From: Candidatus Woesearchaeota archaeon
GTDB lineage: Archaea > Nanobdellota > Nanobdellia > SCGC-AAA011-G17 > UBA489
Assembly (NCBI GenBank): GCA_016845225.1
Contig: JAERTB010000005.1
Span: forward strand, 9,644 to 73,643
Reading direction: 5' to 3'
Length of the DNA stretch: 64,000 bases
In this document: piece by piece, positions 9,944 to 55,926 of the stretch
Position numbering within the stretch: position 1 is the stretch's first letter
How the letters are laid out: every line of letters starts with the position of its first letter
Notes under the pieces: model-generated
The model's input: only the letters and a program-made list of their open reading frames with translations
What the model was told of the DNA's origin: nothing
Databases searched by the model: none
Program-made: the position numbers and the translations under genes

Positions 9944-9947
9944 GAAA

Positions 9948-29963: not shown

Positions 29964-30040
29964 TTTTTCGCAAATTCTACGAAAATTTGTTAGAAAACAA
30001 TAAAAACATTAAAATAATATGTCTAATTAGAGGTTATAAT

Positions 30041-38041: not shown

Positions 38042-39443
38042 GTTTTTTCTTAACAACTTTCTTTTTAGAAACTCTCTTTCTTGTTGTTTTTTTCTTAACA
38101 ACTTTCTTTTTAGTATTCTTTTGGGCTTCAAATCTCATTTTAATTAATGTATAATTTAGAGGGTTCTTTATTTTTGCACACAAACCGTCTGGAGAACATA
38201 TACCTAATGCTTTGTAATATCCTTCGTTTGCACAGTTTGGAGGGAGTAGCGAAGCTGAACGATTAACTGCATTTAATTGTGCTATAAGATATCCTTCCCT
38301 TACAGGATCTCCATTTTTCTTATTCCATTCATCCATCTTATGTTTAATTTCTTCAGGAGAATAGTTTAAACTTTTTAAGAAATTAAGTAAAATGAATAAA
38401 GACCTTTTCTTTCCGTCTTCTTTTATTCCTTCTAATGCTTTCTTTACACAAGGAGGATAATATTCTTCTTTTACTAATTTATTATCTACAACTACTGCTT
38501 CAAAGTTTTTCTTTTCCGGTTGTGCAAAATAATCTTTTCCTTGAACAACTATTGTGGACTTTCTTGTTAATTTAGAATCTTTATTGGGCGCATCAAATGC
38601 CTGAATCAACAATGATCTTGCTTCTGGTTCTACTGGTTTTTTTAAGAATTTGATATCAGTGTTTACGTTTTCTATTTTTGCCTGTCCTAGTTTGAATCTG
38701 TTTATGTTGTTTGGATCAACAGGTACACTAATTAACCCTGATTTTTCATTAACCGAATAAACTGAACGAAATAGATGTCTTGAAGAGATTAATATTGTGT
38801 CTATGTCTACTATTGCAAATGGGTTGAATTTTCCATCAAGAGTTATTTCTTCAATTGATTTGCCTGTGAATTTTGAAATTTCTTCAATTGTTGCTTCCGA
38901 TAAAATCTTTTCAGATAATTTATCAAAAATCATGTTTCCTAAAAAATCTGCTATTTTTCTTGGACCTTCAGGAAATAATTGACTTGTTGGTTTACCATCT
39001 ATTTCTTTAGGAAATGCTTCAAATGGGATAATTATATGGAATCCTTTTCTTCCACTGAACTTGACTCCAAATGATTTGATATTGTAGAACTTTAAGGCTT
39101 CAATTAGTAAGAATGTTGTGATCTGGGAGTATTCTACGTATGCTGAATCAATATCTAGAACACAATCCCATCCGCTTCTTAATGCATTTAATTCTTTTCT
39201 GGGCATTCCTGTGACTATCTGTAAGGGATTGCTCCAGCGTTCTTCAGATACGTGGAATGAAGAAGCTCCGCTCCTAGCGAATTCAAATACGTCTGAGCCA
39301 TATTGTAGTATATCTGGACGTTTGCCAAATCCTCCGTCACTATACCTTACTGCTACCTCTCTATCTTTAGCTAAGTCTAGAATAGCATTTTGAATAGGTT
39401 TACGAGCATAAAATTTTAGAAGATTTTCAAAGTCTAAGGCCAT
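38016..39443 (-). CDS. priS: DNA primase: PriS catalytic subunit fused to PriL-CTD-like Fe-S domain, lysine-rich tail
   Basis: PriS motifs WDCVLDIDS, SGRKGFHIIIP and RHLFRSVYSVNEKSG. C-terminal PPCVKK plus three further Cys (CANEGYY...GICSPDGLC) resembling the PriL CTD. KKVVKKK tail. Confidence 0.8.
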   Translation of the reverse strand: MALDFENLLKFYARKPIQNAILDLAKDREVAVRYSDGGFGKRPDILQYGSDVFEFARSGASSFHVSEERWSNPLQIVTGMPRKELNALRSGWDCVLDIDSAYVEYSQITTFLLIEALKFYNIKSFGVKFSGRKGFHIIIPFEAFPKEIDGKPTSQLFPEGPRKIADFLGNMIFDKLSEKILSEATIEEISKFTGKSIEEITLDGKFNPFAIVDIDTILISSRHLFRSVYSVNEKSGLISVPVDPNNINRFKLGQAKIENVNTDIKFLKKPVEPEARSLLIQAFDAPNKDSKLTRKSTIVVQGKDYFAQPEKKNFEAVVVDNKLVKEEYYPPCVKKALEGIKEDGKKRSLFILLNFLKSLNYSPEEIKHKMDEWNKKNGDPVREGYLIAQLNAVNRSASLLPPNCANEGYYKALGICSPDGLCAKIKNPLNYTLIKMRFEAQKNTKKKVVKKKTTRKRVSKKKVVKKKPKQTSPKP

Positions 39444-42014: not shown

Positions 42015-42440
42015 TTATTTTTTTGTAGCGGTTTTCTTAACTACTTTTTTGACGGTTTTCTTTGTAACTTTTTTCACAACTTTTTTTACTTTTGGTTTTT
42101 CTTCTTTTTTTTCAACCTTAGGTTTTGCAACTTTCTTAGGTTTTTCTTTTGAATGTGATTTTCTAACTCTTCTAGGGCGTTCAGTCTTTTTTGTTTTTGG
42201 TTTTGTAGTTTTAACATCGATGTTTAAAGTTTTGAATGCAGTTGCTACTTTAGCATGTGCATCTCCTTTTTTAATATCTAAGGTTTTGTTAAGTGGTTCT
42301 AAATGATTTATACTACACTTTCTTCTTCTTGTTTCTCCATCAATTAATACGAAGTTAGAATCAATTTTTTCAACAACAACAGCTTTCTTTCCAGCGTCTC
42401 TTCCTGCTATTTTAACGCAAACTCTTCCTACATCAATCAT
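42015..42440 (-). CDS. rpl14e: 50S ribosomal protein L14e with KKVVKK lysine-repeat tail
   Basis: MIDVGRVCVKIAGRDAGKKAVVVEKIDSNFVLIDG matches eL14. C-terminal VKKVVKKVTKKTVKKVVKK. Confidence 0.85.
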   Translation of the reverse strand: MIDVGRVCVKIAGRDAGKKAVVVEKIDSNFVLIDGETRRRKCSINHLEPLNKTLDIKKGDAHAKVATAFKTLNIDVKTTKPKTKKTERPRRVRKSHSKEKPKKVAKPKVEKKEEKPKVKKVVKKVTKKTVKKVVKKTATKK

Positions 42441-42712
42441 TGTTCTTCCTCTCTTGCTTTAGTAATTAGTAATTTTCTTGTTGCCTTAGAAGATAAAACT
42501 CCACCATAAGGTCTTTCAGGTCTTCTTTTTGACTTAGAGATTGTTTGTAACTTTGCTGATCTTGCTTGAGGCACTGCTTGTAAAGGTTTACCAGTCACAG
42601 CACACACTACTCTAGATGATCTTTTTTGCTTTACAGTTACTTTTGATCTTCCACCAGGTAAACGAATTGTCTGCTTTCCCTTGGTCTTAGAATTTACTGA
42701 TTTTCCTGCCAT
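42437..42712 (-). CDS. rpl34e: 50S ribosomal protein L34e
   Basis: 91 aa. eL34-like N-terminus and central region with one Cys. Conserved position before L14e. Confidence 0.85.
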   Translation of the reverse strand: MAGKSVNSKTKGKQTIRLPGGRSKVTVKQKRSSRVVCAVTGKPLQAVPQARSAKLQTISKSKRRPERPYGGVLSSKATRKLLITKAREEEQ

Positions 42713-42770
42713 TGTGTGATTTAGTTCTAAAATTTGATTTAAAAAGTTTTGGGTAGCTAGAAGCGCTGTA

Positions 42771-43238
42771 TTAGTGAATTTTAAGGATTTTACGGATAAT
42801 TATGCTAAAGAACACCGCTGATAGAAAATAAGTTCCTAACCAACCTAATCCTGTGCCAAATAACGGAACATTTGCACTCCAAGTGATAATATCTCCCATT
42901 TCTGAAAATTTTGCTCTTAACCATCCAAATACAATAATTAAAGGTATGAAAGTGATCATAGTTGGCTTCATACTTAGTTTCATATATTGTAAATTTTTAG
43001 CCATTGCTTTCTTTTGAATTTTCATGAATTTTTCTGGATTATCTCTCAGAGTTTTCATTTCTTTTTGAAGTTCTTTTAGTTCTTTTTTTAGAGCCTTCAT
43101 TAAATGCTGATCTGTGAAAAATTTATAGAATAAATTAATCATAAGTGTTAATAAAACTGAGACTAAAATTACAGCCCACGCTGCACCTAACTTCATGAAT
43201 GGTTGAAATAACCAATCGAAAAAACTTTCTAACACCAT
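42771..43238 (-). CDS. DUF106/EMC3-like membrane insertase homologue (archaeal Oxa1 superfamily)
   Basis: 155 aa. Three TM helices with a charged coiled-coil loop. Conserved position between secY and L34e. Confidence 0.65.
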   Translation of the reverse strand: MVLESFFDWLFQPFMKLGAAWAVILVSVLLTLMINLFYKFFTDQHLMKALKKELKELQKEMKTLRDNPEKFMKIQKKAMAKNLQYMKLSMKPTMITFIPLIIVFGWLRAKFSEMGDIITWSANVPLFGTGLGWLGTYFLSAVFFSIIIRKILKIH

Positions 43239-43242
43239 CTTT

Positions 43243-44649
43243 TTATTTCTCCATCATCTTTCTTAATGCTGGATGCATATCCATCATATGTTGTTGTGCG
43301 ATCTCCTCGTATAGTTTGTAAATAATCATTACTGCTAGTAAGATACCTGTTCCATTTGCTAATGCTCCAAGTAAATCTGCTGATGCTGCTAAAACTCCGA
43401 TAGCCACTCCTCCAAGCACTGTTAATGAAGGAATGTACCTATTTAAGATTGCTTCTAAAACTCTTGGATCTCTTCTGAATCCTGGAATTTGTAAACCTGA
43501 TGCCATCATCTTCTTTGCCTGTGCTGCCGCATCCATTCCTGCAGTTTGAACCCAGAAAACTGAGAATAAAACTGCTCCGCCAACCATTAATGCCATGTAA
43601 ACTACTGCATGTGCAATATCTATTCCTGCTAATGATCCAGTAATCATTCCATGGACAAGATTTGGAGGATATATCCATGCAACTAAACCTGATGAAGGGG
43701 TGTTTCCTGCAAAAGTACCTAGTATAGGTTTACCCCAATTTTCTAATAGTCTCGCCCATAATTGGATGTTAGCTAAAAGTGCTGCTGTTAAAATAACTGG
43801 GATGTTTGAAGTATATAAGAAATTTAATGGCCATCTCATTCCGTGACCCCTTACTCTTCCGAAAGATAGAGGGATTTGAATTTTCATGGATTGTGCATAC
43901 ACTGAAAATATGAAAATAAATATTGTTGCTAAAATTGCTGCTAAAGCTAATCCTGCACCCAATGGATTTCTACCCATTAATGATTGGAAAAATACCCAAA
44001 CTTGTCCAATTGGTGCTTGGCCTGAACCGAATGCCCAACTACCAATACTGTTTAGTGGAGAAAGTGCTCTTACGAAAATTGAACTTGACACCCCTGCAGC
44101 GATGAATAGTGAAACACCTGAACCAAATCCATATTTATTGATAACTTGATCCATGTAAAGAACCATGAAACCTCCCAAGATTAATTGAAACACTAATGTA
44201 AATTGCATAAGTAAATATGAAGAAGTTCCTAATAATTCTGATGCTGGTGCTAATCCGCCCAAGAACACATAAATAAATGCTTCAAATACAATAAAGAATA
44301 CAGTCATTACTTTTTGTAAACCTTGAAAAAACATTTTTCCATCTGGGGTGTTTGTATCGATTTTTAATATACCTGAACCTGTTAATAATTGAAGTACGAT
44401 GGATGCTGTTACAATAGGGCCAATACCTAAGGACATGATGGAACCAAAACTTGCTCCAAGAATAATTGAAAGTGATTCAAATTGAGAAAGTGCGTTTTGA
44501 CCTAAACCGAATAAAGGAATTATGGATAAAACAAAGAATGCAACTAGAATTAATAATGTCCATTTTAGTTTTACTTTGAATCCAAGTCTTTTTTCAGAAG
44601 GACCCCTTACTTCGGGAAAAATATTTGCTACTTTTTCAAAAAATTTCAT
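43243..44649 (-). CDS. secY: Preprotein translocase SecY
   Basis: 468 aa, 10 TM. Conserved SecY blocks and position after L15. Confidence 0.95.
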   Translation of the reverse strand: MKFFEKVANIFPEVRGPSEKRLGFKVKLKWTLLILVAFFVLSIIPLFGLGQNALSQFESLSIILGASFGSIMSLGIGPIVTASIVLQLLTGSGILKIDTNTPDGKMFFQGLQKVMTVFFIVFEAFIYVFLGGLAPASELLGTSSYLLMQFTLVFQLILGGFMVLYMDQVINKYGFGSGVSLFIAAGVSSSIFVRALSPLNSIGSWAFGSGQAPIGQVWVFFQSLMGRNPLGAGLALAAILATIFIFIFSVYAQSMKIQIPLSFGRVRGHGMRWPLNFLYTSNIPVILTAALLANIQLWARLLENWGKPILGTFAGNTPSSGLVAWIYPPNLVHGMITGSLAGIDIAHAVVYMALMVGGAVLFSVFWVQTAGMDAAAQAKKMMASGLQIPGFRRDPRVLEAILNRYIPSLTVLGGVAIGVLAASADLLGALANGTGILLAVMIIYKLYEEIAQQHMMDMHPALRKMMEK

Positions 44650-44683
44650 ATTTACAAGACCAGTTTTCTATTTTTAACATGTT

Positions 44684-45109
44684 CTATTCTTCAGAAGACT
44701 CGGAAGGTTTGGAAAGAACAGTTACTTTTCCCCCATTTGCTTCTATTTTTTGTTTAGCCTTTTCTGAACATGTATCTACTGTAATCTCGTATTTTAATTT
44801 TGGTGAACCTTTGCCTAAAAGTTTTTTGTATCCTAAACTTCCTAAATCTAATTTTGGAGTTTCTGGAAGATCGCATATGTTAATGGATTTAACTTCCACT
44901 GTTGTTTTTCTATGGAATCCCCTTTTACCTAAATAAGAAAGTCCAAATTTTTGAAGAACTGTGAATTTTCTATGATCTGCCCTCTTACCAGTACCAGCAT
45001 TACCATACCCTCCACGATTACCTGATCCTCTTCTCTTCTTTTGAGAACCTCCTCCGTGTGTTCTTTCTCCTCTGTAACGCTTTAGTTTTTTTTGTCTTTT
45101 TACTGTCAT
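44684..45109 (-). CDS. rpl15: 50S ribosomal protein L15 (uL15)
   Basis: Gly/Arg-rich N-terminus ([30 protein letters not shown]). Synteny. Confidence 0.85.
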
Positions 45110-45110
45110 T

Positions 45111-45614
45111 TTAAAGCATCCTTGTTAATATATCTTTGATTTTATCTTTTCTGTATCCCACAACTCCACCTTGTGCGAATGGAACCTTTATTCCTTTTCT
45201 TTCAAATCCTTTTACAGGAGGATTTAATTTAAAGAAACTCTTTAGTCCTGGAACATCTTTAATTTCTTTTTTGAATGAGATAAAATCTTTTGCAAAACTT
45301 GCAATATCTGATTTTGTTTTTTCTTTTAAGTAATCGTCTGTTAATCTTTTGTTGCCTGGAAGTTTTCCTCTTGCTTTGAATAGTGATTCACAAGTTTCTT
45401 CATCGATTTCTCCCCATGTAGCATCGTTCTTTATTTTTTCTAACATTCCTAAATGTGAAGGATCGTTAGGAATAATTACACAAGTGTACTTATTGTAGAG
45501 TCTTAACTTTTCAAATGTAGCCTTAACGTCATGCCTCATACCTGGCTTTCCTTTAATTCTAATTACTGCAATTCTTCTTTTTTCAGTCATTTTAAAGTTT
45601 TGAACCCTCCACAA
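45111..45614 (-). CDS. rpl30: 50S ribosomal protein L30 (uL30)
   Basis: 167 aa archaeal long form. Synteny S5-L30-L15. Confidence 0.8.
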
Positions 45615-46362
45615 TTCCTAATTTTTTTATGTGAGATTCTTGAATTTTAACTTTTGATAGATTCTTTAATGCATCAAAACATGCTTTAAGTAAATTTAAT
45701 TTTGTACCTGTGTGTCCTGAAGTTTTAGAGTAAATATCTTTTATTCCTGCCATTTCTAGGATTCTTGCACATTCCTTTTCTACAACTAATCCTGTACCCT
45801 GTGGAGCAGGCATTAATCTAACTTTTACTGAACCGCATTTTCCTTCTACTGCGAATGGAATTGATGTAGGTTTAGGTTCTGCTGATTCCCATGACCCTGA
45901 TCCTCTTCTTATTTTGATCAAATTTAATTTTGCTTGTCTTGTAGATTTTTCTCTTGCAGGAACTGTTTCTCTTGCCTTTCCAAGACCAATACCCACATAT
46001 CCATCTTCATTTCCAACAATTGCTAGTGCTGAGAAACTCGCTTTGTTTCCTTCTTTAGTCTTCTTTTGAGTTTGTCTCCAAATACTCTTCTTTCCACCAC
46101 CGAACTTTCCTTTAGATTGTCCGATGTTTAGTAAATCTGATTTTAAACCTGGAACTAATGCGTCCACGATTTCTGCTTCTAGAATAGTATAACCGTTATC
46201 TAATACTTGATCAATATCTGTAATTTTGCCTGCCTTTACTTCTTTACCTATTTTAGTAATTGGCTTCCAACCATCTGCATCAAATACTCTTTCTCTAGAA
46301 ACTCCCTTAGGCATGTTTCCTTCCGCTCTGGTTTCTTTAGATTGTGGTTTTTGTTCTGTCAT
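45592..46362 (-). CDS. rps5: 30S ribosomal protein S5 (uS5)
   Basis: dsRBD plus S5 C-terminal domain (VGNEDGYVGIGLGKA...). Synteny. Confidence 0.9.
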   Translation of the reverse strand: MTEQKPQSKETRAEGNMPKGVSRERVFDADGWKPITKIGKEVKAGKITDIDQVLDNGYTILEAEIVDALVPGLKSDLLNIGQSKGKFGGGKKSIWRQTQKKTKEGNKASFSALAIVGNEDGYVGIGLGKARETVPAREKSTRQAKLNLIKIRRGSGSWESAEPKPTSIPFAVEGKCGSVKVRLMPAPQGTGLVVEKECARILEMAGIKDIYSKTSGHTGTKLNLLKACFDALKNLSKVKIQESHIKKLGIVEGSKL

Positions 46363-46363
46363 T

Positions 46364-46870
46364 TTATTTCTTTAATTTATTGATTATTTCTTCATAATTT
46401 TGTTTCTTTGTTACATGTTCGCCTTTTAAGCGTTCTTCTACGGGGAATACTGAAGACTCAAGCTCTTTTCCGTGTGAAATGCTTACTCCTGCGTCTGTAA
46501 TTCCTTTAAGTGCTGCGAAAATTGCTCCGGTTGTATGAGGTTTTCTTGAACCTAAGTCTGGAACAACTTCTGTAATTTTTAGTTCTTTAATTTTATTACC
46601 TGCCAAAAGTCCAGTAATATATGCTGCAGGAATATTCTTTAATGAACCCTTTAATCCGTGAGATTTAGGTAATGTTTGTGAAGATGTTGAGGATAATATC
46701 TTATCTCCATCGGGAGTAAATTGTATTAATTGAATAACAATGTTCTTTAGTGATCTTCTAATTACTAATCTTGGTCTTCCTGCTTTAAGTAAACTAAGTC
46801 TTTTATTGTAATCGGTTCTTCCTTCTCTTTTCCTTTTGTAAGGAAGTCCATTCTTTGTTATGTTTTTCAT
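46364..46870 (-). CDS. rpl18: 50S ribosomal protein L18 (uL18)
   Basis: 168 aa. Synteny and RLVIRRSLKNIVIQLIQ. Confidence 0.85.
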   Translation of the reverse strand: MKNITKNGLPYKRKREGRTDYNKRLSLLKAGRPRLVIRRSLKNIVIQLIQFTPDGDKILSSTSSQTLPKSHGLKGSLKNIPAAYITGLLAGNKIKELKITEVVPDLGSRKPHTTGAIFAALKGITDAGVSISHGKELESSVFPVEERLKGEHVTKKQNYEEIINKLKK

Positions 46871-47316
46871 TTTTTACCTAAATTATGCTCCTCAATGTAA
46901 AGTCTAATGTGTCTTCTACTTCTGAAGAAACCACCCTTAGATTTTCTATAAAGTAAACGATAAACTTTTGTTTCGATTATTCCTTTTTCTTTTAAGTACT
47001 TTAGTAAGTCTCTAATTGCTCTAATTTTATTCATCCATGCAACTTTTTTAGGAAGTCTTGCATTACGTGTTCCGCTTCTTCTTCCTTGACCTGATCTTCT
47101 ACCTTTTCTTTTTTGTTTTAGTGTTTTTCTAAATCTTGATTTTGAAATTCCTTTATCTTGTTCTTTTGTGATTACTTTGTCCTTGATTAATGAACGAATA
47201 TCTGCTGAAGTGATTGCTTCTTTAATACTCTTAAGTTCTGAGGTGTTGAATCTAACTTTATTCTTTCCACATTTCAATGCTTGAGCTGCAATCCTTTTTT
47301 TACTTGTTAAGTTCAT
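46867..47316 (-). CDS. rpl19e: 50S ribosomal protein L19e
   Basis: 149 aa. KKRIAAQALKCGKNKVRF matches eL19 N-terminus. Confidence 0.85.
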   Translation of the reverse strand: MNLTSKKRIAAQALKCGKNKVRFNTSELKSIKEAITSADIRSLIKDKVITKEQDKGISKSRFRKTLKQKRKGRRSGQGRRSGTRNARLPKKVAWMNKIRAIRDLLKYLKEKGIIETKVYRLLYRKSKGGFFRSRRHIRLYIEEHNLGKK

Positions 47317-47322
47317 TTTTTA

Positions 47323-47898
47323 TTATTCCTTTTTCTCCAAGATTTTTTTCTTTTCTTCTTTTACTTTAGATTCTTGTTTTTCAGTAGAGGTTTTTTCTTT
47401 TGGTTTGTCTTTTTCTTCTTTTTTCTTTTCTTCTGCTTTCTTTTTAGCTTCTTCTTTCGCTCTCTTATCTTTTCTTTGTTGAATTCTTTGCTTATTAGAT
47501 TTTAATGAATCTTCTATAGCTTTTGTGTAGGACTCAACGTCTTTAATGTTTAAAATTTGAATATTATTTTTCTTACATTCTTTAATTATTTCCATTCTTT
47601 TTCTCTTTCCAACTGTTGCACCGATTGAAATTGGAGTTTTTACCCCTTCTAATTCTTTAACTGTGTTGATTAAAATTACTTCATGGCCTTCTCTAGTTAA
47701 TCCTCTTACTTCTTTTGGTGAGGAGAATCCCATTGAAGGATGCCTTCTATAGCTTCTTAGTTTCTTACGGAATTTAGAGTGTTGACCTTTTGGTTGTCTC
47801 CAGTGGTTCCTAAGTCTAACCATAGTGTTAGCTCCTTGTTTTAGGAAAGTTGGCTTCTTTGCCTTTGCTTTATTCCTTAAATCTAGTAATTTTTTCAT
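47323..47898 (-). CDS. rpl32e: 50S ribosomal protein L32e with K/E-rich tail
   Basis: RLRNHWRQPKGQHSKFRKKLRS matches the eL32 core. Confidence 0.85.
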   Translation of the reverse strand: MKKLLDLRNKAKAKKPTFLKQGANTMVRLRNHWRQPKGQHSKFRKKLRSYRRHPSMGFSSPKEVRGLTREGHEVILINTVKELEGVKTPISIGATVGKRKRMEIIKECKKNNIQILNIKDVESYTKAIEDSLKSNKQRIQQRKDKRAKEEAKKKAEEKKKEEKDKPKEKTSTEKQESKVKEEKKKILEKKE

Positions 47899-48449
47899 TT
47901 TTTATCGCTCGGTTTTGATGTAATGTAGCATCCGTCTTGGAAAGTACGTCTATCTCTCTTCTTGATGAAAGTTGCCTTTTCAATATTTGCCGCAGTTTGA
48001 CCTGCATTTTCAATTTCAGATGATTTTACTGTAATGTCTTCTCCTTTAATTTCTAAATCTACTCCTGGAAGGATAATTGCTCTTCTTGGAATTTTTTCTC
48101 CAAGGAAATTTGTTACTACGACTTCTGATCCTTCTTTCTTTACAGTCATAGGGAAGTGACCCGAACATATCTTTAACTCATAAGTAAATCCGTCAGTTGC
48201 GCCAATTATTTGATTATTGATATGTGCTTTAATTGTGTTTAATACTCTTGTAAATTTTCTTTTTACTGATCTTGAAGATACAATTATTGAGTTGTCTTTT
48301 TGTGCTAATTGAACTAAGGGATTGAAGTAATCTCTTGAATTTTCTCCTGCAGGGCCCTTCATAGTTAACACTGCCTCATTAAGAGTTGCAGTAATTCCTT
48401 CTGGAAGAGTTATTGTGTTACTTATTCCGGTATCTTTCTTAGTTGCCAT
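47895..48449 (-). CDS. rpl6: 50S ribosomal protein L6 (uL6)
   Basis: 184 aa, two-domain L6. Synteny. Confidence 0.9.
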   Translation of the reverse strand: MATKKDTGISNTITLPEGITATLNEAVLTMKGPAGENSRDYFNPLVQLAQKDNSIIVSSRSVKRKFTRVLNTIKAHINNQIIGATDGFTYELKICSGHFPMTVKKEGSEVVVTNFLGEKIPRRAIILPGVDLEIKGEDITVKSSEIENAGQTAANIEKATFIKKRDRRTFQDGCYITSKPSDKK

Positions 48450-48451
48450 TG

Positions 48452-48853
48452 TTAGTAAATATATGCGATTAACCTTCCTCCAACTTTTTGTTCTTTTGCT
48501 TGTTCATGAAGCATTAATCCTTTTGAAGTTGAAACTAAAATGTGACCAAATCCTTTTGCTGGAAGATATCTTTTTTCGAATTTTTCGAAATTATCTAGTT
48601 TAACAGGGAATCTTGGTTTGATTACTCCGCATTTGTTTAATGTTCCAATTAAATTAACTACGATTTTTCCGCCTTTTTTGTCATCGATTACTTCTTGATC
48701 TCCGATGTAACCATTTTCTTGCATTATTGTTAATACTTTTAATACCACTTTGGATACAGGTCCAACTGTACATTCGGTCTTTCCTGCTTTTGAAGCAAGA
48801 TACATTGTGTTCAACACGTTAGCTAATGGGTCATTTAACATTTTTTTCCTCAA
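48452..48853 (-). CDS. rps8: 30S ribosomal protein S8 (uS8)
   Basis: 133 aa. [13 protein letters not shown] matches the uS8 N-terminus. Confidence 0.9.
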
Positions 48854-49080
48854 CAGTATTTTTTGAATCCTATTTTTGTTGCAATATCTCTAAAACACTT
48901 TCTGCAAAGTTTTAGATTATATTTTTGAATATGTCCGGATTTTGAACCGCATCTTCTACACTTTTTCAAATTTTTTCCACAAGTACGTAATTTTGGGGAA
49001 TTGTGTTTCTTGTATTTTAACAACTTTGCAGGTTTTGCTTTAAGTTGTTTAAACATTTTAGTGTAGCTTTTTGTAGTCAT
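48850..49080 (-). CDS. rps14: 30S ribosomal protein S14 type Z (uS14, zinc-binding)
   Basis: 76 aa. CRRCG...CRKCFR zinc motif. Synteny between L5 and S8. Confidence 0.8.
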
Positions 49081-49601
49081 ATTGTCTTAACTCCATATTT
49101 TGTTTTCATAAATGTGATTGCATTTTCTTTTGTAATTTTATGGGCCTTAGGTATGCTTTTTTTGTGTACTGCTCTTCTTTTAATTCTGAATCCTTTTCTC
49201 TTCAATGTAACTGCTAATTCTAAACCAGATATCCCTATTTCTGGATCATATTCTATTCCAGGAATGTCTAAATATTCGTGAATTCCGAATGAAAAGTTTC
49301 CATGATCGTCGAAAGATGATTCTTTTAGTTCTTTTTTCTTTGCATCTAATAATTGTTTTAGTAATTCTGCTGCCTTTTTTCCTCTAACTGTAACCCTGCA
49401 TCCAAGCTCTAATCCAGGACGAACTCCCCATGTAGGAATTCTTCTTGAAGACTTTGTAGTTACTGCTTTCATTCCTGAAAGTTTATTCAATAACTTTAGG
49501 GATTTTTCTAATTGTGCTCCAGGCCCACCTGTACCACAGTTTAAAGAAATTTTCTCTACTGAGATTTCTCTCATTACATTTTCTTTAACAGCATCTGCCA
49601 T
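49077..49601 (-). CDS. rpl5: 50S ribosomal protein L5 (uL5)
   Basis: 174 aa. Synteny and conserved core. Confidence 0.9.
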
Positions 49602-50278
49602 TATAAGTCTCCTCCGACTACATATGCATATTCTTTTGCTGTTTCAATTGATTCTTTTCCAATTTTAACTATGATCTTTTGAACTGTTGAAAGATTTACT
49701 TTATCTAAAATTTCTTCTACAATTGCATTATGTCCGATGTGCTTACCTGCGGTCAAGAATACTTTTGCACCTTTTTCAAGTTTGAAATGAGATGTAACTT
49801 TGTTTTTTTCTACAACTACAGAATCTCCAACCTTGTAACCTGCATCTTTATCTAAAATTAAGTTTTTACCTGCGAATAAATTTAATTGAAGTTTACCTTT
49901 TGGAAGTATTGTTTTACCAATAATTCTTGAAGGTCTTTGAATTGCTTTTGTTTGTTTTTTGAATTCAAATTTACCTAATTGATTGTAAATTACCAAGTAT
50001 GATTCTTTTAGTAGAGGAAATGAAATTTCATCTAAGAAACCGATTGAAAATCTGTGATCTTTTACTGCTTCACCATTAACTAATACGTCACCAGTATTCA
50101 AAATCTTTTTAGTTTCTCTTGATGTTTTTACTACTTGTAAAATATCTCTTAGTGCAACTACTAATGATACTGATTCTTCCTTCTTATGCGCTCCTGCCGA
50201 TTGGCAAACTAAATACTTTGTTGCCTTTCTTCCAAGAGGCATCCTTTTTGAAGTTGCCATTCTTTTTTGATGAGTCAT
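49601..50278 (-). CDS. rps4e: 30S ribosomal protein S4e
   Basis: 225 aa. S4-like plus KOW-containing eS4 layout. Synteny. Confidence 0.9.
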   Translation of the reverse strand: MTHQKRMATSKRMPLGRKATKYLVCQSAGAHKKEESVSLVVALRDILQVVKTSRETKKILNTGDVLVNGEAVKDHRFSIGFLDEISFPLLKESYLVIYNQLGKFEFKKQTKAIQRPSRIIGKTILPKGKLQLNLFAGKNLILDKDAGYKVGDSVVVEKNKVTSHFKLEKGAKVFLTAGKHIGHNAIVEEILDKVNLSTVQKIIVKIGKESIETAKEYAYVVGGDL

Positions 50279-50673
50279 TTTTTATTTTCCTCTGTTAATG
50301 AATTTAATTTTGATTTTCTTTTTTTATCTTCAAGATTTAACTCTTCGATTTGTATATTTGATGAGTTCATTGGATGAAATGATTTTGAACCATCTCTTTT
50401 CATTGTAAATAATGAATCTATTTTTACTTTGGACGTTTTTACATCAACAGAGTCTATTTTTCCTGTTTTTCCACTGTATTGTCCTCTCATCACTTTCACT
50501 TTGTCTCCAACCCTTAATCTGAATGATCTTATCCCATACTTTTGGATTAATGCTTTTGATAAATGTGCATTTAGGAATTTTCCACGTAGGTGAATAGGTG
50601 CATTAGCTAAATATTTTCTTTGCTTTCTTCTATTCTTACTTGATTTCCAAAGTGGTGAAAAAAATTGTTTCAT
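50275..50673 (-). CDS. rpl24: 50S ribosomal protein L24 (uL24)
   Basis: KOW motif (GDKVKVMRGQYSGKTGKI). Synteny. Confidence 0.85.
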   Translation of the reverse strand: MKQFFSPLWKSSKNRRKQRKYLANAPIHLRGKFLNAHLSKALIQKYGIRSFRLRVGDKVKVMRGQYSGKTGKIDSVDVKTSKVKIDSLFTMKRDGSKSFHPMNSSNIQIEELNLEDKKRKSKLNSLTEENKK

Positions 50674-50674
50674 T

Positions 50675-51076
50675 TTATAATATAATTCTCGCTATTTTTG
50701 ATATTCTTGGCCATCTAGCCGCAGCCTCTTTTGATACTGGCCCTTTAAAAATGGTACCTTTAGGTGTTCCTTTTTCATCTTTAAGCACTACTGCCGCATT
50801 ACTTTCAAAACATACATGAGTTCCATCTGGCCTTCTGTATGATTTTTTTTGACGAACAATAACTGCAGGAACTACTTGTTTTCTCATTGCAGGAGTTCCT
50901 TTGATAACTGATGCTAATACTAGGTCTCCAACTTGAGCTTCGGGTTTACGGCCCTTAACACCTTTTGTACCCTTTACTGAAATAATTCTAAGAACTTTTG
51001 CTCCTGAATTGTCACAAGTAGGTACTTTTGCTCTATGAGGTAAACATCTACTCATACTTGCAGATAAGGCTTTCAT
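50675..51076 (-). CDS. rpl14: 50S ribosomal protein L14 (uL14)
   Basis: 133 aa. Highly conserved uL14 sequence (DNSGAK...). Confidence 0.95.
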   Translation of the reverse strand: MKALSASMSRCLPHRAKVPTCDNSGAKVLRIISVKGTKGVKGRKPEAQVGDLVLASVIKGTPAMRKQVVPAVIVRQKKSYRRPDGTHVCFESNAAVVLKDEKGTPKGTIFKGPVSKEAAARWPRISKIARIIL

Positions 51077-51339
51077 TGTGAAATAACCTCCATAGCTACA
51101 AAGTTTTTTGTTTTAGAGATAGGTCTTGTTTCAACAATCTTTAACATATCTCCCTTTGCTAATTTGAAATCTTCTGGAACATGAACTTTAATTCTTGTTT
51201 TTCTTTTTTGGAACCTTTCATATTTTGAAACGTATACTTTTCTATCGAACTCTATTGTTGTTGTTTTGTGGAAAACATCAGAGATAACTCTACCTACAAA
51301 GGTTCTTCCATGTGTTCTGATTTTTGTGTTTTGTTTCAT
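51073..51339 (-). CDS. rps17: 30S ribosomal protein S17 (uS17)
   Basis: 88 aa OB-fold. Synteny. Confidence 0.85.
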   Translation of the reverse strand: MKQNTKIRTHGRTFVGRVISDVFHKTTTIEFDRKVYVSKYERFQKRKTRIKVHVPEDFKLAKGDMLKIVETRPISKTKNFVAMEVISQ

Positions 51340-51340
51340 T

Positions 51341-51619
51341 TTATATTTTGATTTTTTTCTTCAGGCGTTCTTCAGGTCTTCCTTGAAGAATTTCTCCTTC
51401 AATGATGAATGTTTTCCCTTGAATTTTTGTTTTTATTGTTATTTGTTTTTTTACGAGTTTCTTTGTTTCTCCGTTTTCTGTTTCCAATGTGAACAGATTT
51501 TTTGTTTCATTGACAACTTTTCCTTTCATCCCAATTTGGGAAGGGTTGTTTGCAGAGATTATCTCAACAATCTTGCCAATGAATTCCGTTCTTGGAATGT
51601 TTTTTGCCTTTGTTTGCAT
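51341..51619 (-). CDS. rnp1: RNase P protein component 1 (Rpp29/Pop4)
   Basis: 92 aa. GMKGKVVNETKNLFTLET Sm-like core. Conserved position between SUI1/L29 and S17. Confidence 0.7.
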   Translation of the reverse strand: MQTKAKNIPRTEFIGKIVEIISANNPSQIGMKGKVVNETKNLFTLETENGETKKLVKKQITIKTKIQGKTFIIEGEILQGRPEERLKKKIKI

Positions 51620-51621
51620 AT

Positions 51622-51924
51622 TTATTCTATGGATTCCTTTGCAAAGCCCATTTTTTCAAGCTCGGCCTTTGCTCTTTGCTTGTGTTCTCCTTGGAGTTCA
51701 ACGGTGGTTCCTTTGATGGTTCCTCCGCAAGCAAGCTTTGACTTAAGCTTCTTTGCAACATCTTTGATGTTTATTGACTTTGGGTCCAAACCCATTATGA
51801 CGGTGATTATTTTTCCGAACTTCCTTTTTTCAAGTTTAACCTTGATTCGTTGTTCACCTTTGGCGATATTATCCCAAACGTCTAGTTCTTTTGGAAGTCC
51901 TGTTATCGGATCTCTCTCAACCAT
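51622..51924 (-). CDS. sui1: Translation initiation factor SUI1 (aIF1)
   Basis: 100 aa. RKFGKIITVIMGLD and CGGTIKG blocks. Confidence 0.8.
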   Translation of the reverse strand: MVERDPITGLPKELDVWDNIAKGEQRIKVKLEKRKFGKIITVIMGLDPKSINIKDVAKKLKSKLACGGTIKGTTVELQGEHKQRAKAELEKMGFAKESIE

Positions 51925-52226
51925 TATGCTTTCTTCTCGACCTCCTTTGTTTTTTGCGAGCTTGATTTTTTAACAACTTTTTTTACTACCTTTTTAACAA
52001 CTTTTTTTACCTTAACTTCAGTTGCTGGTGCATTTTCTTTTTGTGTTATATAAGTATTAATCCTTGCAATTGCTTTTCTTGTTGCTTTGATAAGACCTGG
52101 ATTTTCTGGAGGTGTTCCGCTTGCCCTTTGCATATTTAATTTCATTAATTCTTTCTTTAACTCTGATCCTTTTGTTCCTAATTGTTCAAGGTTTAATTGA
52201 GCAAGTTCTTTCTTTTTGATTGACAT
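51924..52226 (-). CDS. rpl29: 50S ribosomal protein L29 (uL29) with KKVVKK tail
   Basis: N-terminal uL29 helix pair (KELAQLNLEQL...ELMKLNMQ). C-terminal VKKVVKKVVKKVVKK. Confidence 0.8.
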   Translation of the reverse strand: MSIKKKELAQLNLEQLGTKGSELKKELMKLNMQRASGTPPENPGLIKATRKAIARINTYITQKENAPATEVKVKKVVKKVVKKVVKKSSSQKTKEVEKKA

Positions 52227-52227
52227 T

Positions 52228-53055
52228 TTACTCTACCTTATCTCCTTTAGTTTCTTCTTTAGGAGCTTCTTCTTTAGGAGCTTCTTCTTTAGCAACTTTC
52301 TTTGTTGTTTTCTTTACAGTTTTCTTAGCAGCTTTCTTTGTTGTTTTTTCTTTTTTAACTTCAATTACATCTATTCCATCAACTTCTGAAACTTCTACAG
52401 TTTTTTCTGCATTTAACTCCTTAAAGTCTGTTTCTTCTAATTGTGGTTCAAGTTCTTCTTGTTTGATTGCTAGCATTTCTTTTTCTAACATAATGTCTGA
52501 AGTAAGTATGCTAACTGCAACTCCAATTGTTCCCATTTTGTTTGTGAAGTTTAGTGATTTTTTATGAACTTTAGATTGATTGATATCTCCAGATTTCTTT
52601 AAGTATCCTGCTGAGAATCTCCAAGATTTTGCTCTTGTACTTGGAATTTTACCAGACAATATAATCTCTGCACCGATTGCTCCTGCATCCATGATGTTCT
52701 GTAATAATTTGTATCCAATTGACTTGAATCTTTTTTGACCAAATCTTTCTAAGCTTGAAGCAACTCTATCAGCAACATAATCTACATCCAACATAGGTGC
52801 CGGAAGTTCTCCAATCTCTAATTGAGGATTTTCTAATTTGTATTTGTTTTTTAATAATGCTGTTAATTTTTTGATATTTTCTCCCTTCTTACCAACTACG
52901 ATTCCTGGCCTAGTAGTATAAACAATTACATTTTCACCTAGAGGAGTTCTTCTTATTTCAATATGTGAAAATCCAGTTCTAGCAAAGATTCTACCTATTT
53001 GCTCTTGAATTTGGAATTCCTTCAATTTTTGGTTTATGAATTGTCTTTCTATCAT
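52228..53055 (-). CDS. rps3: 30S ribosomal protein S3 (uS3) with lysine-rich C-terminal extension
   Basis: KH plus S3-C domains. Tail KKAAKKTVKKTTKKVAKEEAPKEE. Confidence 0.9.
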   Translation of the reverse strand: MIERQFINQKLKEFQIQEQIGRIFARTGFSHIEIRRTPLGENVIVYTTRPGIVVGKKGENIKKLTALLKNKYKLENPQLEIGELPAPMLDVDYVADRVASSLERFGQKRFKSIGYKLLQNIMDAGAIGAEIILSGKIPSTRAKSWRFSAGYLKKSGDINQSKVHKKSLNFTNKMGTIGVAVSILTSDIMLEKEMLAIKQEELEPQLEETDFKELNAEKTVEVSEVDGIDVIEVKKEKTTKKAAKKTVKKTTKKVAKEEAPKEEAPKEETKGDKVE

Positions 53056-53600
53056 TTTTTATTTTCCTCAGTTTTTGGTTTTACGACTTTTTTTACAACT
53101 TTCTTTACAACTTTCTTTGTTGCGGGTTTTGTTGTTTCTTTTTCAACTTGTTTTTGTTCTGGTTTTTTTGTTTGTTTCTTTTCTTTTACTTTTTCTTCAG
53201 CATGAATTTCAATGTGTGATCTTTTTGTTTTTCTTCTAATTTGTCTTCCTTGACGCATTGGTCTTGAAGCCATATTTGGAATTACTTGTGAAATCACTAG
53301 TGAGCTTGTTTCTAATCCTTTTTCTTGAGCATTCTTTTCAACTGAATTTAATAAAGTTAATATTTCTGTAGATGCCTTTACAGGGTATCTTCCTGCAGCC
53401 ATTTTTCCTTTCTTGTGCGCAATTTTGTGTAAATGTCTAGTGAAAGGTATTGCGGATTTCAATTTGATTACTTTCTTTAGGTAATCTTGTGCAACTGAAA
53501 GCTTCTTGCCTCTAATGAAATTACTTATTACAATTGCATGCTTGGTCGAAATAGATAAATTCCTTCCAATTACCTTTGCGCTGTGTGCATCTACTTTCAT
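53052..53600 (-). CDS. rpl22: 50S ribosomal protein L22 (uL22) with KKVVKK tail
   Basis: uL22 core (SPKKL...). Tail ATKKVVKKVVKKVVKPK. Confidence 0.85.
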   Translation of the reverse strand: MKVDAHSAKVIGRNLSISTKHAIVISNFIRGKKLSVAQDYLKKVIKLKSAIPFTRHLHKIAHKKGKMAAGRYPVKASTEILTLLNSVEKNAQEKGLETSSLVISQVIPNMASRPMRQGRQIRRKTKRSHIEIHAEEKVKEKKQTKKPEQKQVEKETTKPATKKVVKKVVKKVVKPKTEENKK

Positions 53601-53605
53601 TTTAA

Positions 53606-54010
53606 TTATTTAGCCTTTGAAGCTGATGAAGTACTGGATTTAGTAGCACCGACACCTGCTGAACCGTGAGTAACTCTCTTTCTTGACGGAGCTAACTCTC
53701 CGAAAAACAGTCCAATCATTTCCTCCACTATGTGTATTTCTGCGAAATCTTTTCCGTTGTGAATTCCAATTGTTAATCCTACCATTTCTGGTAAAACAAT
53801 CATTGTTCTACTGTGTGTTTTAATTTGTTTTTTTCTAGTTCCTTGGTTTGCAGCTCTTACTTTTTTCATAAGAGGTTCTACAGTAGTCATTAAATCCCTC
53901 ATTAATGATCTTCTCTTTCTTGAAGTTAATAAATCTGCAAAAGATTTTATATCCATCTGCTTTAATTCTTCCAATGTTTTTCCTTTGTACTTGAATATTT
54001 CATCTACCAT
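53606..54010 (-). CDS. rps19: 30S ribosomal protein S19 (uS19)
   Basis: 134 aa. GLTIGIHNGKDF conserved block. Confidence 0.9.
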   Translation of the reverse strand: MVDEIFKYKGKTLEELKQMDIKSFADLLTSRKRRSLMRDLMTTVEPLMKKVRAANQGTRKKQIKTHSRTMIVLPEMVGLTIGIHNGKDFAEIHIVEEMIGLFFGELAPSRKRVTHGSAGVGATKSSTSSASKAK

Positions 54011-54015
54011 TTTAG

Positions 54016-54741
54016 TTAGTTCCTCTTACCTGTTCTTCTTGCTCTAATCTTACCAACATTTCTACCTGGTGGTGCAAACTTAGGAGCTGTAAGCGGTTTA
54101 CCTGCATGACGTCCACGACCTGAACCGAATGGATGGTCTACAGCATTCATCGCTACACCTGAAGTTCTAGGATATAGTTTTCCTTTTGCTTTCATTGCAT
54201 GATATTTATTTCCTGCTTTTACTAGAGGTTTTTCTTTCTTTCCTCCGCCTGCAATTTTTCCAATTGTTGCACGACATTCAGGATTGAATAATTTCTTTTT
54301 TCTTGAAGGCATAATAACTAATGCACCTTTTTCTGTAATTGTACTAAGTTTAGCTGTTGCACCAGATGCTCTAACTAATGAGCCTCCATCTGCAAGTCTT
54401 GTTTCAATATTATAAATTTGAGTCCCTTCTGGAATATTTTTCAATGCTAGGGTACTACCTAATGTTGGTTCTGCTTTTGCACCAGTGTTAACTCTGTCTC
54501 CTACTTTCATACCTAATGGTGCGAAGATGTAATTATATTCTCCATTATCATATTTTACTATTGCAATAGGAGCTGTATGTCCTGCACAATGTGTTAAATC
54601 TTTAACAACTCCGCCCATTGAACCTTCTTGTTCAATCTCATCATACCTTCTGTGATTAATTGCAACATTCCATCTATGTGAATGTGCTTTGTATGTGGAA
54701 GTTCCTCTTCCTCTTCTCTGTGTAATGATTCTTTTTCCCAT
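54016..54741 (-). CDS. rpl2: 50S ribosomal protein L2 (uL2)
   Basis: Start at MGKRIITQRRGRG. Highly conserved uL2 blocks (HPFGSGRGRHAGKP in the C-terminal region). Confidence 0.95.
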   Translation of the reverse strand: MGKRIITQRRGRGTSTYKAHSHRWNVAINHRRYDEIEQEGSMGGVVKDLTHCAGHTAPIAIVKYDNGEYNYIFAPLGMKVGDRVNTGAKAEPTLGSTLALKNIPEGTQIYNIETRLADGGSLVRASGATAKLSTITEKGALVIMPSRKKKLFNPECRATIGKIAGGGKKEKPLVKAGNKYHAMKAKGKLYPRTSGVAMNAVDHPFGSGRGRHAGKPLTAPKFAPPGRNVGKIRARRTGKRN

Positions 54742-54742
54742 C

Positions 54743-55006
54743 TTATAACATTCCCATTTGTGTTGCCACGTCAATTGCAGGAGTTTCTAATGAAAGTTTT
54801 ACATAAGCTTTCTTTTTTCCTGTCGGCATGATTGTTGTATTTATTCCTTCAACTTTTACTTTGAATATGTTTTCTATTGATTCTTTAATTTCTTTTTTAG
54901 TTGAGTCTTTAGCTACAGTAAAAACTAATTTATTTTCTGATTCCATTAATCTTACTGCCTTTTCTGTTGGCTTTGGATATTTTACTATGCTGTATGGATC
55001 TCTCAT
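54743..55006 (-). CDS. rpl23: 50S ribosomal protein L23 (uL23)
   Basis: 87 aa. Synteny and uL23 core. Confidence 0.85.
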   Translation of the reverse strand: MRDPYSIVKYPKPTEKAVRLMESENKLVFTVAKDSTKKEIKESIENIFKVKVEGINTTIMPTGKKKAYVKLSLETPAIDVATQMGML

Positions 55007-55926
55007 TGTTTAACTTCCTTTGTTTTCTTTGTAACTTTTTTTACAACTTTTTTTACTGTTTTTTTTGCAACCTTCTTAACAACTTTCTTTGTTTTAGGTT
55101 TTTCTTCTTTTTTTGAAATTGATTTGTAAAATAGGTTTTCTTTTTCCATTGTTTTTACTGCTTCTTCTGTGAATAATGTTAATCTTCCAGGATTTCCTCC
55201 AGGAGCTAATACCATTACATTTAGATTTTTAACCAAACAAACATCAACACCCAATAAATTTGATGCTGCATCAAATAAAGGACACTCTTTTGAAACAACT
55301 ATTAACGGCCCTCTTTTGGTCCTATATTTTCTGTTTCTCATCTTTCCTCTTCCTGCTCTAACTTTTCTTTTAGAAACTCTTTTCATTTCTTCTGATAAGT
55401 TTAATTTTGTAAGTAGAGTTGCAACATCTTTTGTTTTTGAAATTGCTTCTGCTTTAGAATCGATTACAGAGATTAATTCTGAAAATCTGTGGCCTCTTGC
55501 CTTTACAATGTCAGGAATTATTGTTGAAGAGATTGCTGAACGGATTGCAAATCTTCTTTCATTTTTATTTATTTTTTGTGAAAAATCTTTTGTTGCTTTT
55601 GCTGGATGTGCTCTTCTTCCAGATACGGTTCCTGGTGCAAACGCTCCAACATATGCGAATTGGGTTCCTCTCTTCCATAAGAATTTTCTAGGAACACGAG
55701 AAATACCTCTACCATATGAAGATTTGATTTTTTTACGTCTTCTAGATAGTTCTGCTGCTGCTCTGATACCTGCACCAACGAAAGCCCCTGCTCTTTGACG
55801 TAAATTTCCTTCAATTACTTCATTTGCTTTTTTGATAATATCTGGACGAATTGATTCAGTAAACTGTTTAGGTAGGTTGATTGAAGATCCCTTCTTTCCA
55901 TCCACTCCATAAATGTCTGCTTTCAT
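55003..55926 (-). CDS. rpl4: 50S ribosomal protein L4 (uL4) with KKVVKK tail
   Basis: uL4 core. Tail KKVVKKVAKKTVKKVVKKVTKK. Confidence 0.85.
   Translation of the reverse strand: MKADIYGVDGKKGSSINLPKQFTESIRPDIIKKANEVIEGNLRQRAGAFVGAGIRAAAELSRRRKKIKSSYGRGISRVPRKFLWKRGTQFAYVGAFAPGTVSGRRAHPAKATKDFSQKINKNERRFAIRSAISSTIIPDIVKARGHRFSELISVIDSKAEAISKTKDVATLLTKLNLSEEMKRVSKRKVRAGRGKMRNRKYRTKRGPLIVVSKECPLFDAASNLLGVDVCLVKNLNVMVLAPGGNPGRLTLFTEEAVKTMEKENLFYKSISKKEEKPKTKKVVKKVAKKTVKKVVKKVTKKTKEVKQ

Follow-up and report, generated by a model that had tools for sequence, protein, structure and literature searches.

We analyzed a 64,000-nucleotide (nt) stretch of a Candidatus Woesearchaeota archaeon genome (assembly GCA_016845225.1, contig JAERTB010000005.1, positions 9,644 to 73,643; hereafter the window), in which five ribosomal proteins and a DNA primase end in lysine-rich repeat tails. 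The window has a guanine-plus-cytosine (GC) content of 31% and carries an archaeal ribosomal-protein operon on its minus strand, read from 56887 to 42015. This operon begins with uL3, uL4, uL23, uL2, uS19, uL22, uS3, uL29, SUI1, and RNase P p29, continues through uS17, uL14, uL24, eS4, uL5, uS14, uS8, uL6, eL32, and eL19, and closes with uL18, uS5, uL30, uL15, SecY, a membrane protein, eL34, and eL14. Pfam confirmed the domain names of the tail bearers, and domain names were likewise confirmed for a near-identical contig.

All five tailed ribosomal-protein genes are on the minus strand, and Tandem Repeats Finder detected imperfect period-12, period-24, or period-36 arrays at every ribosomal tail. 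The eL14 gene (42015-42440) has the C-terminus ...KVKKVVKKVTKKTVKKVVKKTATKK. Its C-terminal extension (42018..42215) lies past a ~75-residue core matching solved archaeal eL14, and the periodic (KKxx) core of the extension (42018-42086) holds a period-24 array at 42019-42074. The tail of uL29 (gene 51924-52226, tail 51927..52034) reads ...VKKVVKKVVKKVVKKSSSQ... and is built around a (KKVV)3KK core at 51966-52007, detected as a period-12 array of 3.5 copies with 80% matches. In uS3 (gene 52228-53055), the tail ...KTTKKAAKKTVKKTTKKVAKEEAPKEEAPKEE... (52231..52350) comprises a KK(T/A/V)2 periodic block at 52285-52340 (period 12, 4.6 copies) followed by a 15-nt repeat encoding KEEAP at 52252-52292 (2.7 copies, 100% match). 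The uL22 gene (53052-53600) encodes the tail ...TKKVVKKVVKKVVKPK... (53055..53198), with a (KKVV)3 core at 53080-53118 that forms a period-12 array with 92% matches. Finally, uL4 (gene 55003-55926) ends in ...KTKKVVKKVAKKTVKKVVKKVTKKTK... (55006..55125), the periodic core of which (55024-55089) contains both period-12 and period-36 arrays. The C-terminal tail of eL32 (47326..47493, gene 47323-47898, minus strand) is also of low complexity and charged, and is of another flavor, rich in lysine and glutamate (K/E).

At its very end, the uL29 tail also carries a signal for the next gene. Positions 51924-51950 (minus strand) read ...AAGGAGGTCGAGAAGAAAGCATAATG, which places a Shine-Dalgarno-like AGGAGGT ~15 nt upstream of the SUI1 start, and the SUI1 start and the uL29 stop share one base. 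Hence, tail ends bear translation-coupling signals in addition to coding for the tail.

The repeat is confined to the 3' ends of a few genes. Scanning all six frames of the window for (KKxx)3KK returned only four matches, in uL4, uS3, uL29, and eL14, each located 0-22 residues before the stop. An 18-nt degenerate DNA pattern for KKVVKK (AARAARGTNGTNAARAAR) matched 11 times, as compared with 0.03 matches expected from shuffles (~370-fold), and 0 of 100 shuffles attained this count. All 11 matches were on the minus strand at the 3' ends of eL14, uL29, uL22, uL4, or the primase gene, with uS3 carrying the KK(T/A/V)2 variant. Together with translation, this count confirmed a sequence-only reading of the same DNA, which had described lysine-repeat tails on L14e, L29, S3, L22, L4, and the primase. 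Among 88 non-overlapping open reading frames (ORFs) in the window, the most basic C-termini belonged to a 102-residue repeat protein, the primase, uL4, eL14, and uL29. The pooled tails were 39% lysine, which is above the 30% lysine that marks a described class of low-complexity regions, and lysine and arginine made up 50% of the last 30 residues of both uL4 and eL14.

Alignments to solved archaeal structures ended near residue 261 of 307 for uL4 and near residue 74 of 141 for eL14. The solved proteins are 246-255 residues long for uL4 (one is 285) and 81-103 residues long for eL14, and they lack the tails. Likewise, the last residue of the Pfam L22 domain is 133 and that of the Pfam L29 domain is 63, with both tails starting later. 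On this comparison the tails are add-ons relative to characterized archaea.

Tails in related genomes and metagenomes

A scan for uL14 with one genome per species yielded 63 related ribosomal-operon loci (L001-L063), amounting to ~1 Mb in total and all centered on the ribosomal operon. The nearest by uL14 belonged to Candidatus Woesearchaeota (DPANN), with L001 at 96% identity and L002-L006 at 75-84%. We called ORFs in the 63 loci, assigned orthologues by BLAST, and defined a tail as the residues past the last alignment column filled in at least 80% of a family's sequences. Tails of at least 15 residues occurred on uL4, uL22, uS3, uL29, eL32, uS17, uL24, uL15, eL19, and uS5, and no tail of that length occurred in the 63 loci on uL2, uL3, uL5, uL6, uL14, uL23, uS8, uS19, or SecY. 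We scored eL14 separately and found long tails in most of 15 orthologues.

Tails of at least 15 residues were common in the other Woesearchaeota loci on uL4 (11/26), uL22 (14/32), uS3 (25/32), and eL32 (25/25), and a K/E tail was present on eL32 in 31 of the 31 Woesearchaeota loci examined. Pacearchaeota-like loci mostly had no tails on uL4, uL22, and uS3. Given that the solved archaeal uL4 and eL14 also lack them, the tails are not universal among archaeal orthologues. The set of proteins ever found with a tail did not differ between Woesearchaeota, Pacearchaeota-like, and Thermoplasmatota loci. Several of these permissive ribosomal proteins carry C-terminal extensions in eukaryotes. The tails had been thought to sit on many unrelated proteins, a description that did not hold, as the carriers are limited to certain ribosomal proteins and one enzyme that acts on DNA.

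Tail composition followed the base composition of the genome. The alanine plus proline content of tails increased with locus GC (Spearman rho = 0.82), while lysine content decreased (rho = -0.53). High-GC tails have alanine and proline spacers of the AKKA or PAKK type, such as ...PAKKAAKKAAKKA in uL4 of L011, and the spacers of low-GC relatives are glutamate, valine, threonine, isoleucine, or asparagine. Tail sites are probably set by which C-termini tolerate additions, and tail sequence largely by genome base composition. The lengths of uL4 and uL22 tails also correlated across genomes (rho = 0.62), although we gave this value no weight as it is uncorrected for kinship.

The (KKVV)n flavor itself was restricted to a clade consisting of the window (WIN) and L001-L006, having 70-74% ribosomal-protein identity to the window. 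A neighbor-joining tree of 3,962 concatenated core columns resolved its members as (((WIN,(L002,(L003,L004))),L005),L006). The KKVVKKVTKK block of eL14 was conserved in WIN, L002, L003, L004, and L006. L006 carried (KKVV)n on uL4, uL22, uS3, and eL14, and L002 kept it on uL29, where the same tail as in the window was present in L001, L184, and L002. On uL4 and uL22, L002-L004 had sequence rich in lysine, glutamate, and proline (K/E/P) in place of the KKVV blocks. A motif scan across all ORFs of the 63 loci found the repeat at ribosomal-protein C-termini only.

Relatives carried tails at the same C-termini that were rich either in K/E/P or in alanine, proline, and lysine (A/P/K). Since orthologous positions bear tails of differing sequence, the tail positions are older than the KKVV flavor, which gives no support to a single recent appending event. 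As dated by sister-lineage orthologues, the KKVV flavor goes back to the ancestor of the clade and is partly eroding in some of its members. When the uL4 tail (a 42-residue query) was run through a word-indexed protein search, a tool that performs poorly on low-complexity queries, one match was returned, a partial uL4 of a close relative.

Outside of the clade, an exact-pattern scan found DNA coding for KKVVKKVVKK in at least 120 metagenome contigs spanning 19-69% GC, with the window relatives L097 and L155 being among those matched. There were 82 enclosing ORFs of at least 100 residues. Among the matches listed, the recurrent Pfam families were translation initiation factor IF-2 and its GTPase domain, sigma-70, CarD, bacterial topoisomerase I, SWIB, and HC2, and nearly all carriers were proteins that work on DNA or RNA. 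The KKVV peptide is therefore not peculiar to this Woesearchaeota lineage. The proposal that the module is lineage-specific thus survives for the KKVV flavor of ribosomal tails within the clade and fails for the peptide, which recurs on IF-2, sigma-70, CarD, and topoisomerase I.

Codon usage and repeat turnover

The tails had been proposed to spread by recombination between gene 3' ends, and their codons gave no indication of this. When tails of different genes were compared, the same codon was used at 90 of 178 identical-residue positions, as compared with ~101 expected from codon usage, and identity was at or below expectation in 15 of 15 gene pairs. The longest exact DNA common to two tails was an A-rich stretch of 20 nt shared by eL14 and uL4, which is expected from KKVTKK in preferred codons. 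Codon sharing no higher than codon usage predicts gives no hint that genes have recently exchanged DNA. We accordingly rejected a gene-converted or mobile cassette, for which DNA identity should exceed that imposed by the peptide and codon usage.

Adjacent four-codon units within tails shared 88 of 188 codons in the window and five relatives, as compared with 100 expected, and thus showed no aggregate excess. Recent 12-nt slippage as the sole origin was thus not supported in aggregate. Local duplication was nevertheless visible at longer periods, as a 26-nt repeat in the primase gene and as 36-nt and 15-nt units in uS3, and uL22 contained two identical 12-nt units. Together with the Tandem Repeats Finder arrays, these duplications bear out the suggestion that the tails are built from short tandem units. 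The K-K-x-x period is kept while the choice between AAA and AAG is at equilibrium, which suggests selection on the peptide pattern.

Repeat number changes even between close relatives. L184 and L001 (~96% uL14 identity) and the related L097 differed from the window by whole repeat units while retaining the motif. The uL4 tail was rearranged, reading KKVTKKTVKKVVKKVTKKTVKKVVKKVTK in L184 (also P0001) and KKVVKKVAKKTVKKVVKKVTKK in the window. The lysine block of uS3 had two units in relatives versus four in the window, and its KEEAP repeat had three or approximately nine copies in L184 and L097 versus 2.7 in the window. In uL22, the flank contained an 8-residue indel between relatives, and the (KKVV)3 core was intact in L097, L184, and L006.

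One of these loci has an unusual uS3. L097 is a 99-kb metagenome contig with 93-96% identity to the window in uL22 and uS3, and its uS3 frame has no stop before uL29. At L097:10404-12200 (minus strand of the locus), this frame passes through approximately nine KEEAP copies and then ~300 residues of a coiled-coil protein. This run-through may be genuine, reflecting a fusion or rearrangement at the repeat, or it may be an assembly chimera seeded by that repeat. In the sister contig L184, uS3 is normal and uL29 comes next.

The primase tail and other charged repeats

The primase gene (38016-39443, minus strand) encodes a single polypeptide with Pfam matches to the small subunit (residues 109-243) and the large subunit (residues 303-405), that is, a fused PriS-PriL. 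Its basic C-terminal tail (38019..38120, minus strand) reads KKKVVKKKTTRKRVSKKKVVKKKPK. The tail DNA contains a perfect 26-nt direct repeat at 38043-38068 and 38088-38113, 45 nt apart, and codon identity at a lag of 15 codons was 8/8. The primase had 686 homologues in a representative library, most of them 410-550 residues long. Among the best 150 of the 686, many had a conserved IKNPxNY motif and then a variable basic tail of unrelated sequence, and lysine and arginine made up at least 40% of the last 30 residues in 25 of the 150. The window primase tail can be read as one such basic tail in the local KKKVV flavor.

A stand-alone ORF of 102 residues (4051-4359, minus strand) consists of (KRVVKRKTAK)n and contains a 30-nt tandem array at 4075-4266 (period 30, 6.4 copies, 96% matches). 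Such near-perfect repeats suggest recent expansion. The exact protein was not on record in the assembly collection. Its match to Pfam HC2 (PF07382) scored 25.1 bits (E = 2.2e-5), under the 40-bit gathering threshold, and is compositional. A word-indexed protein search returned no real homologue and one compositional match, P0002, a protein of 179 residues in which an unrelated N-terminal part precedes a (KKKTAKKxG/A)n tail with a Pfam HC2 annotation. This match indicates that such searches retrieve composition rather than homology.

The repeat of the primase tail (KKKVVKKKTTRKRVSKKKVVKKK) has a period of 5 residues and that of the 102-residue ORF has a period of 10, rather than 4. Judging from these periods, both are related to the ribosomal tails in composition and are not near-identical to them. 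The sequence-only reading had described near-identical peptides on the ribosomal proteins and the primase and a related repeat in the 102-residue ORF; for the primase and the ORF, the resemblance extends to composition only. The ORF itself was present as described, along with charged extensions on Spt5 and L11.

These extensions lie at 9305-10607 (plus strand), where Spt5 ends in an acidic run of aspartate and glutamate and L11 ends in a K/E-rich tail. Counting eL32, several flavors of charged low-complexity C-termini occur side by side in one genome. Another recently expanded charged repeat is found mid-protein in a 330-residue protein (gene 60768-61760, minus strand), where a 21-nt tandem repeat at 61092-61233 (6.8 copies, 99% identity) encodes (EIKPKVG/E)n.

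Two further features of the window may be mentioned. A 254-residue ORF at 15373-16137 (plus strand), with the LAGLIDADG-like motifs GIFAGDGS and GFFDTDGH, looks like a free-standing homing endonuclease and sits between a class II aminoacyl-tRNA synthetase-like gene and tRNA-Ala. At 29987-31863, a cytosine-5 DNA methyltransferase-like ORF (FAGVGG, PCQ, and ENV motifs) is convergent with a 278-residue ORF on the opposite strand, and the two are possibly a restriction-modification pair.

Origin and function of the tails

We consider it probable, at roughly 60%, that the tails are disordered, polycationic, histone-H1-like C-terminal extensions that bind RNA or DNA, evolved in place, and are kept by selection. 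Tails would arise at the 3' ends of genes whose C-termini tolerate additions, and would gain or lose length as units of 12-45 nt are tandemly duplicated or lost. Selection would maintain the lysine pairs and their spacing, with spacers set largely by base composition: valine, threonine, and alanine at ~31% GC, and AKKA or PAKK at high GC. The likeness among tails would then reflect convergence under one genome's composition together with vertical inheritance in a family-level clade, with no copying of DNA between genes. Functionally, the tails may make non-specific electrostatic contact with the phosphate backbone of surface ribosomal RNA (rRNA), in the case of uL4, uL22, uL29, uS3, and eL14, or of DNA, in the case of the primase. 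Such contacts could provide extra affinity in assembly or stabilize the particle. The sequence-only idea of a nucleic-acid-binding tag fits with carriers that themselves bind nucleic acids and would apply to the tails in this sense.

The tails would probably fold into a helix upon binding. A single-sequence AlphaFold2 model of eL14 predicted a helix at residues 117-140, which contain the KKVV block, with a predicted local distance difference test (pLDDT) score of ~84, making helix formation on binding plausible as modeled. The hydrophobic moment of the tails peaked at 90 degrees per residue. At 100 degrees, the proportion of shuffles reaching the observed moment was 0.008-0.03 for uL4, uL29, and uS3, and the moment was not significant for eL14 (0.19 of shuffles) or the primase (0.9). 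The spacing may have an additional benefit at the level of translation. Long poly(A) tracts disturb translation in other systems (PMC7295572), and KKxx spacing holds adenine runs to 7-8 bases. It may therefore offer a route to high lysine density without long poly(A) in a genome that prefers AAA.

Several observations weigh against this interpretation. Tails change faster than cores, with non-synonymous to synonymous differences of 7:7 in the uL22 tail versus 10:24 in its core, and 2:4 in the uL29 tail versus 2:15 in its core, implying that constraint is relaxed, although not absent. Replacement of KKVV in L002-L004 implies that the exact motif is dispensable. Given the small size of the codon tests, conversion tracts that are old or short could escape them. 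Finding only nucleic-acid-binding carriers is a property of an operon-centered sample and not a proteome-wide result. The eL14 helix comes from a single-sequence model of poor overall confidence (mean pLDDT 49.8), in which the globular domain is also poor. Lastly, the function that we propose is inferred from the composition of the tails and the identity of their carriers.

Some of these same observations would be expected if the tails were a neutral by-product, in which AT-biased mutation, together with slippage, would fill A-rich 3' ends with functionless lysine-rich junk that is tolerated at exposed C-termini. Tail composition tracks genome GC, turnover and indels are fast between close relatives, some related lineages have no tails, the ratio of non-synonymous to synonymous changes is raised, and the acidic or K/E tails of Spt5, L11, and eL32 suggest a general tendency toward charged tails. 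However, neutral decay would scramble the first and second codon positions as well, whereas the period of lysine pairs is kept with AAA and AAG at equilibrium. The eL14 block is also conserved at ~70% identity, and, apart from the primase, none of the ~60 non-ribosomal ORFs in the window contains the motif. We thus regard a purely neutral origin as unlikely. Copying of a tail cassette from one gene 3' end to another, through recombination or gene conversion and with similarity maintained by continuing exchange, could account for closely similar peptides on five genes within 13 kb of one strand and for the short stretches of exactly matching DNA, up to 20 nt long, between eL14 and uL4. This explanation is very improbable in light of the codon comparison, the A-rich nature of the longest match, and the differing sequences at tail positions that predate the flavor, although an old transfer followed by synonymous saturation would still be compatible with the codon data.

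The tails might alternatively form an amphipathic-helix tag with a role other than binding nucleic acids, such as associating ribosomes with the membrane, bundling proteins, or engaging a common chaperone or lysine-modifying enzyme. uL22 and uL29 are located near the ribosomal exit tunnel, the eL14 helix was predicted with local confidence, the moment peaked at 90 degrees and at 100 degrees exceeded most shuffles for uL4, uL29, and uS3, and a motif common to several proteins is what one common reader would require. Yet a period of 4 loses the phase of an alpha-helix over 25 residues, the moment of eL14 at 100 degrees is not significant, and there is no obvious membrane logic for uS3, eL14, or the primase. 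Elsewhere the motif is found on soluble proteins that bind DNA or RNA, and the K/E/P-rich tails of relatives cannot be amphipathic, leaving this role improbable. Similarly improbable, in our estimation, is that (KKVV)n serves as a clade-specific tag on surface ribosomal proteins and the primase, recognized by one reader or acting through co-condensation of lysine and RNA, or else that it compensates for changes in rRNA. Lysine-rich disordered domains of eukaryotic small nucleolar ribonucleoprotein (snoRNP) proteins act in a manner comparable to the proposed co-condensation (PMC11528048). Finally, we give almost no credence to the tails being an artefact of frameshifts, mis-assembly, or mis-called stops. 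Repeats can seed chimeric assemblies, and the uS3 run-through at (KEEAP)9 in L097 may be one, but the window tails are in frame with stops that abut or overlap the start of the next gene. They also recur in independent assemblies from different studies (L001, L002-L006, L097, L155, and L184), and hence are not an assembly artefact.

Disordered, positively charged extensions of this kind have precedents. Bacterial and archaeal ribosomal proteins are reported often to contain low-complexity regions, and in 15% of the archaeal regions lysine makes up at least 30%; the lysine-rich ones have been read as nucleic-acid binding, with archaeal S3 being a recurrent carrier (PMC6821194). That survey by Ntountoumi et al. 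(2019) described ribosomal-protein stretches of low complexity, ~30-40 residues long and at least 30% lysine, that different genera conserve. The window tails match this class in being low-complexity segments with at least 30% lysine that are present in orthologues of other genera. However, the survey covered proteomes of cultured genera, and its descriptions include neither DPANN nor a strict period-4 (KKVV)n unit, nor the sharing of such a unit by five ribosomal proteins of one genome. We found no description in the literature of lysine-rich ribosomal-protein tails in DPANN or Woesearchaeota.

Lysine-rich tails have also arisen on ribosomal proteins in other lineages. Mosquito RPS6 carries an H1-like tail that was judged convergent with histone H1 (PMC548281), and an H1-like lysine-rich tail on mosquito RpL23a was reported by Hernandez and Fallon (2007), as cited in PMC11764897. 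As in the window, these are lineage-specific lysine-rich repeat tails that resemble each other and H1, and for which independent origins were concluded. They differ in being eukaryotic, on other ribosomal proteins, and rich in alanine, proline, and lysine, whereas the window spacers are valine and threonine. In Parcubacteria, of the Candidate Phyla Radiation (CPR), uS19 has an alanine- and lysine-rich C-terminal region (PMC9297842). This too is a clade-specific lysine-rich C-terminal addition, of ~25 residues, in an ultra-small lineage with a reduced genome, but it is bacterial and limited to one protein, and uS19 was never tailed in the archaeal loci examined.

Counterparts to the primase tail and the 102-residue ORF are found among repetitive lysine-rich DNA-binding tails and proteins, namely those of topoisomerase I and Ku, Chlamydia Hc2 (PF07382), and AlgP. 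The lysine repeats of Streptomyces topoisomerase I are cited as raising processivity and, like those of mycobacterial Ku, as binding DNA non-specifically (both as cited in PMC6821194). Pseudomonas AlgP is a repetitive lysine-rich non-specific DNA binder (PMC9239181). KKVVKKVVKK itself occurs on metagenome topoisomerase I and HC2-type proteins among the matches listed. However, there is no sequence homology to any of these proteins, the 102-residue ORF reaching 25 of the 40 bits required for HC2.

Eukaryotes extend some of the same proteins at the same end. The C-terminal extensions of eukaryotic uL4, eL14, and uL29 are basic, ordered, and bind rRNA expansion segments. In solved 80S ribosomes, uL4 is mostly 316-427 residues long and eL14 is 130-220 residues long. 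There was no evidence of common descent, and alignments into the tails were weak and compositional: eukaryotic eL14 aligned to query residues 2-124 or 2-130 at only E = 1e-4 to 1e-5, versus 1e-13 to 1e-17 for archaeal cores, and most uL4 alignments ended at residue ~262. Our best reading is that the window tails are a local flavor of known positively charged histone-H1-like tails rather than a mobile module. What is new here is a well-delimited (KKVV)n case in Woesearchaeota, the kind of tail being already known.

The tails involve no new kind of biology unless they have a specific partner. If the tag reading were true, it would point to a nucleolus-like mechanism of ribosome assembly or clustering in an ultra-small archaeon, and the reuse of C-termini later extended by eukaryotes would be an independent replay of eukaryote-like ribosome elaboration. 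On the practical side, annotators and phylogenomic pipelines should trim such tails from ribosomal-protein markers, and assemblers can form chimeras there. Tail flavor is also a cheap marker for one Woesearchaeota clade. More generally, the case shows the way in which the translation machinery of reduced-genome archaea acquires charged low-complexity tails, whose repeat number changes fast.

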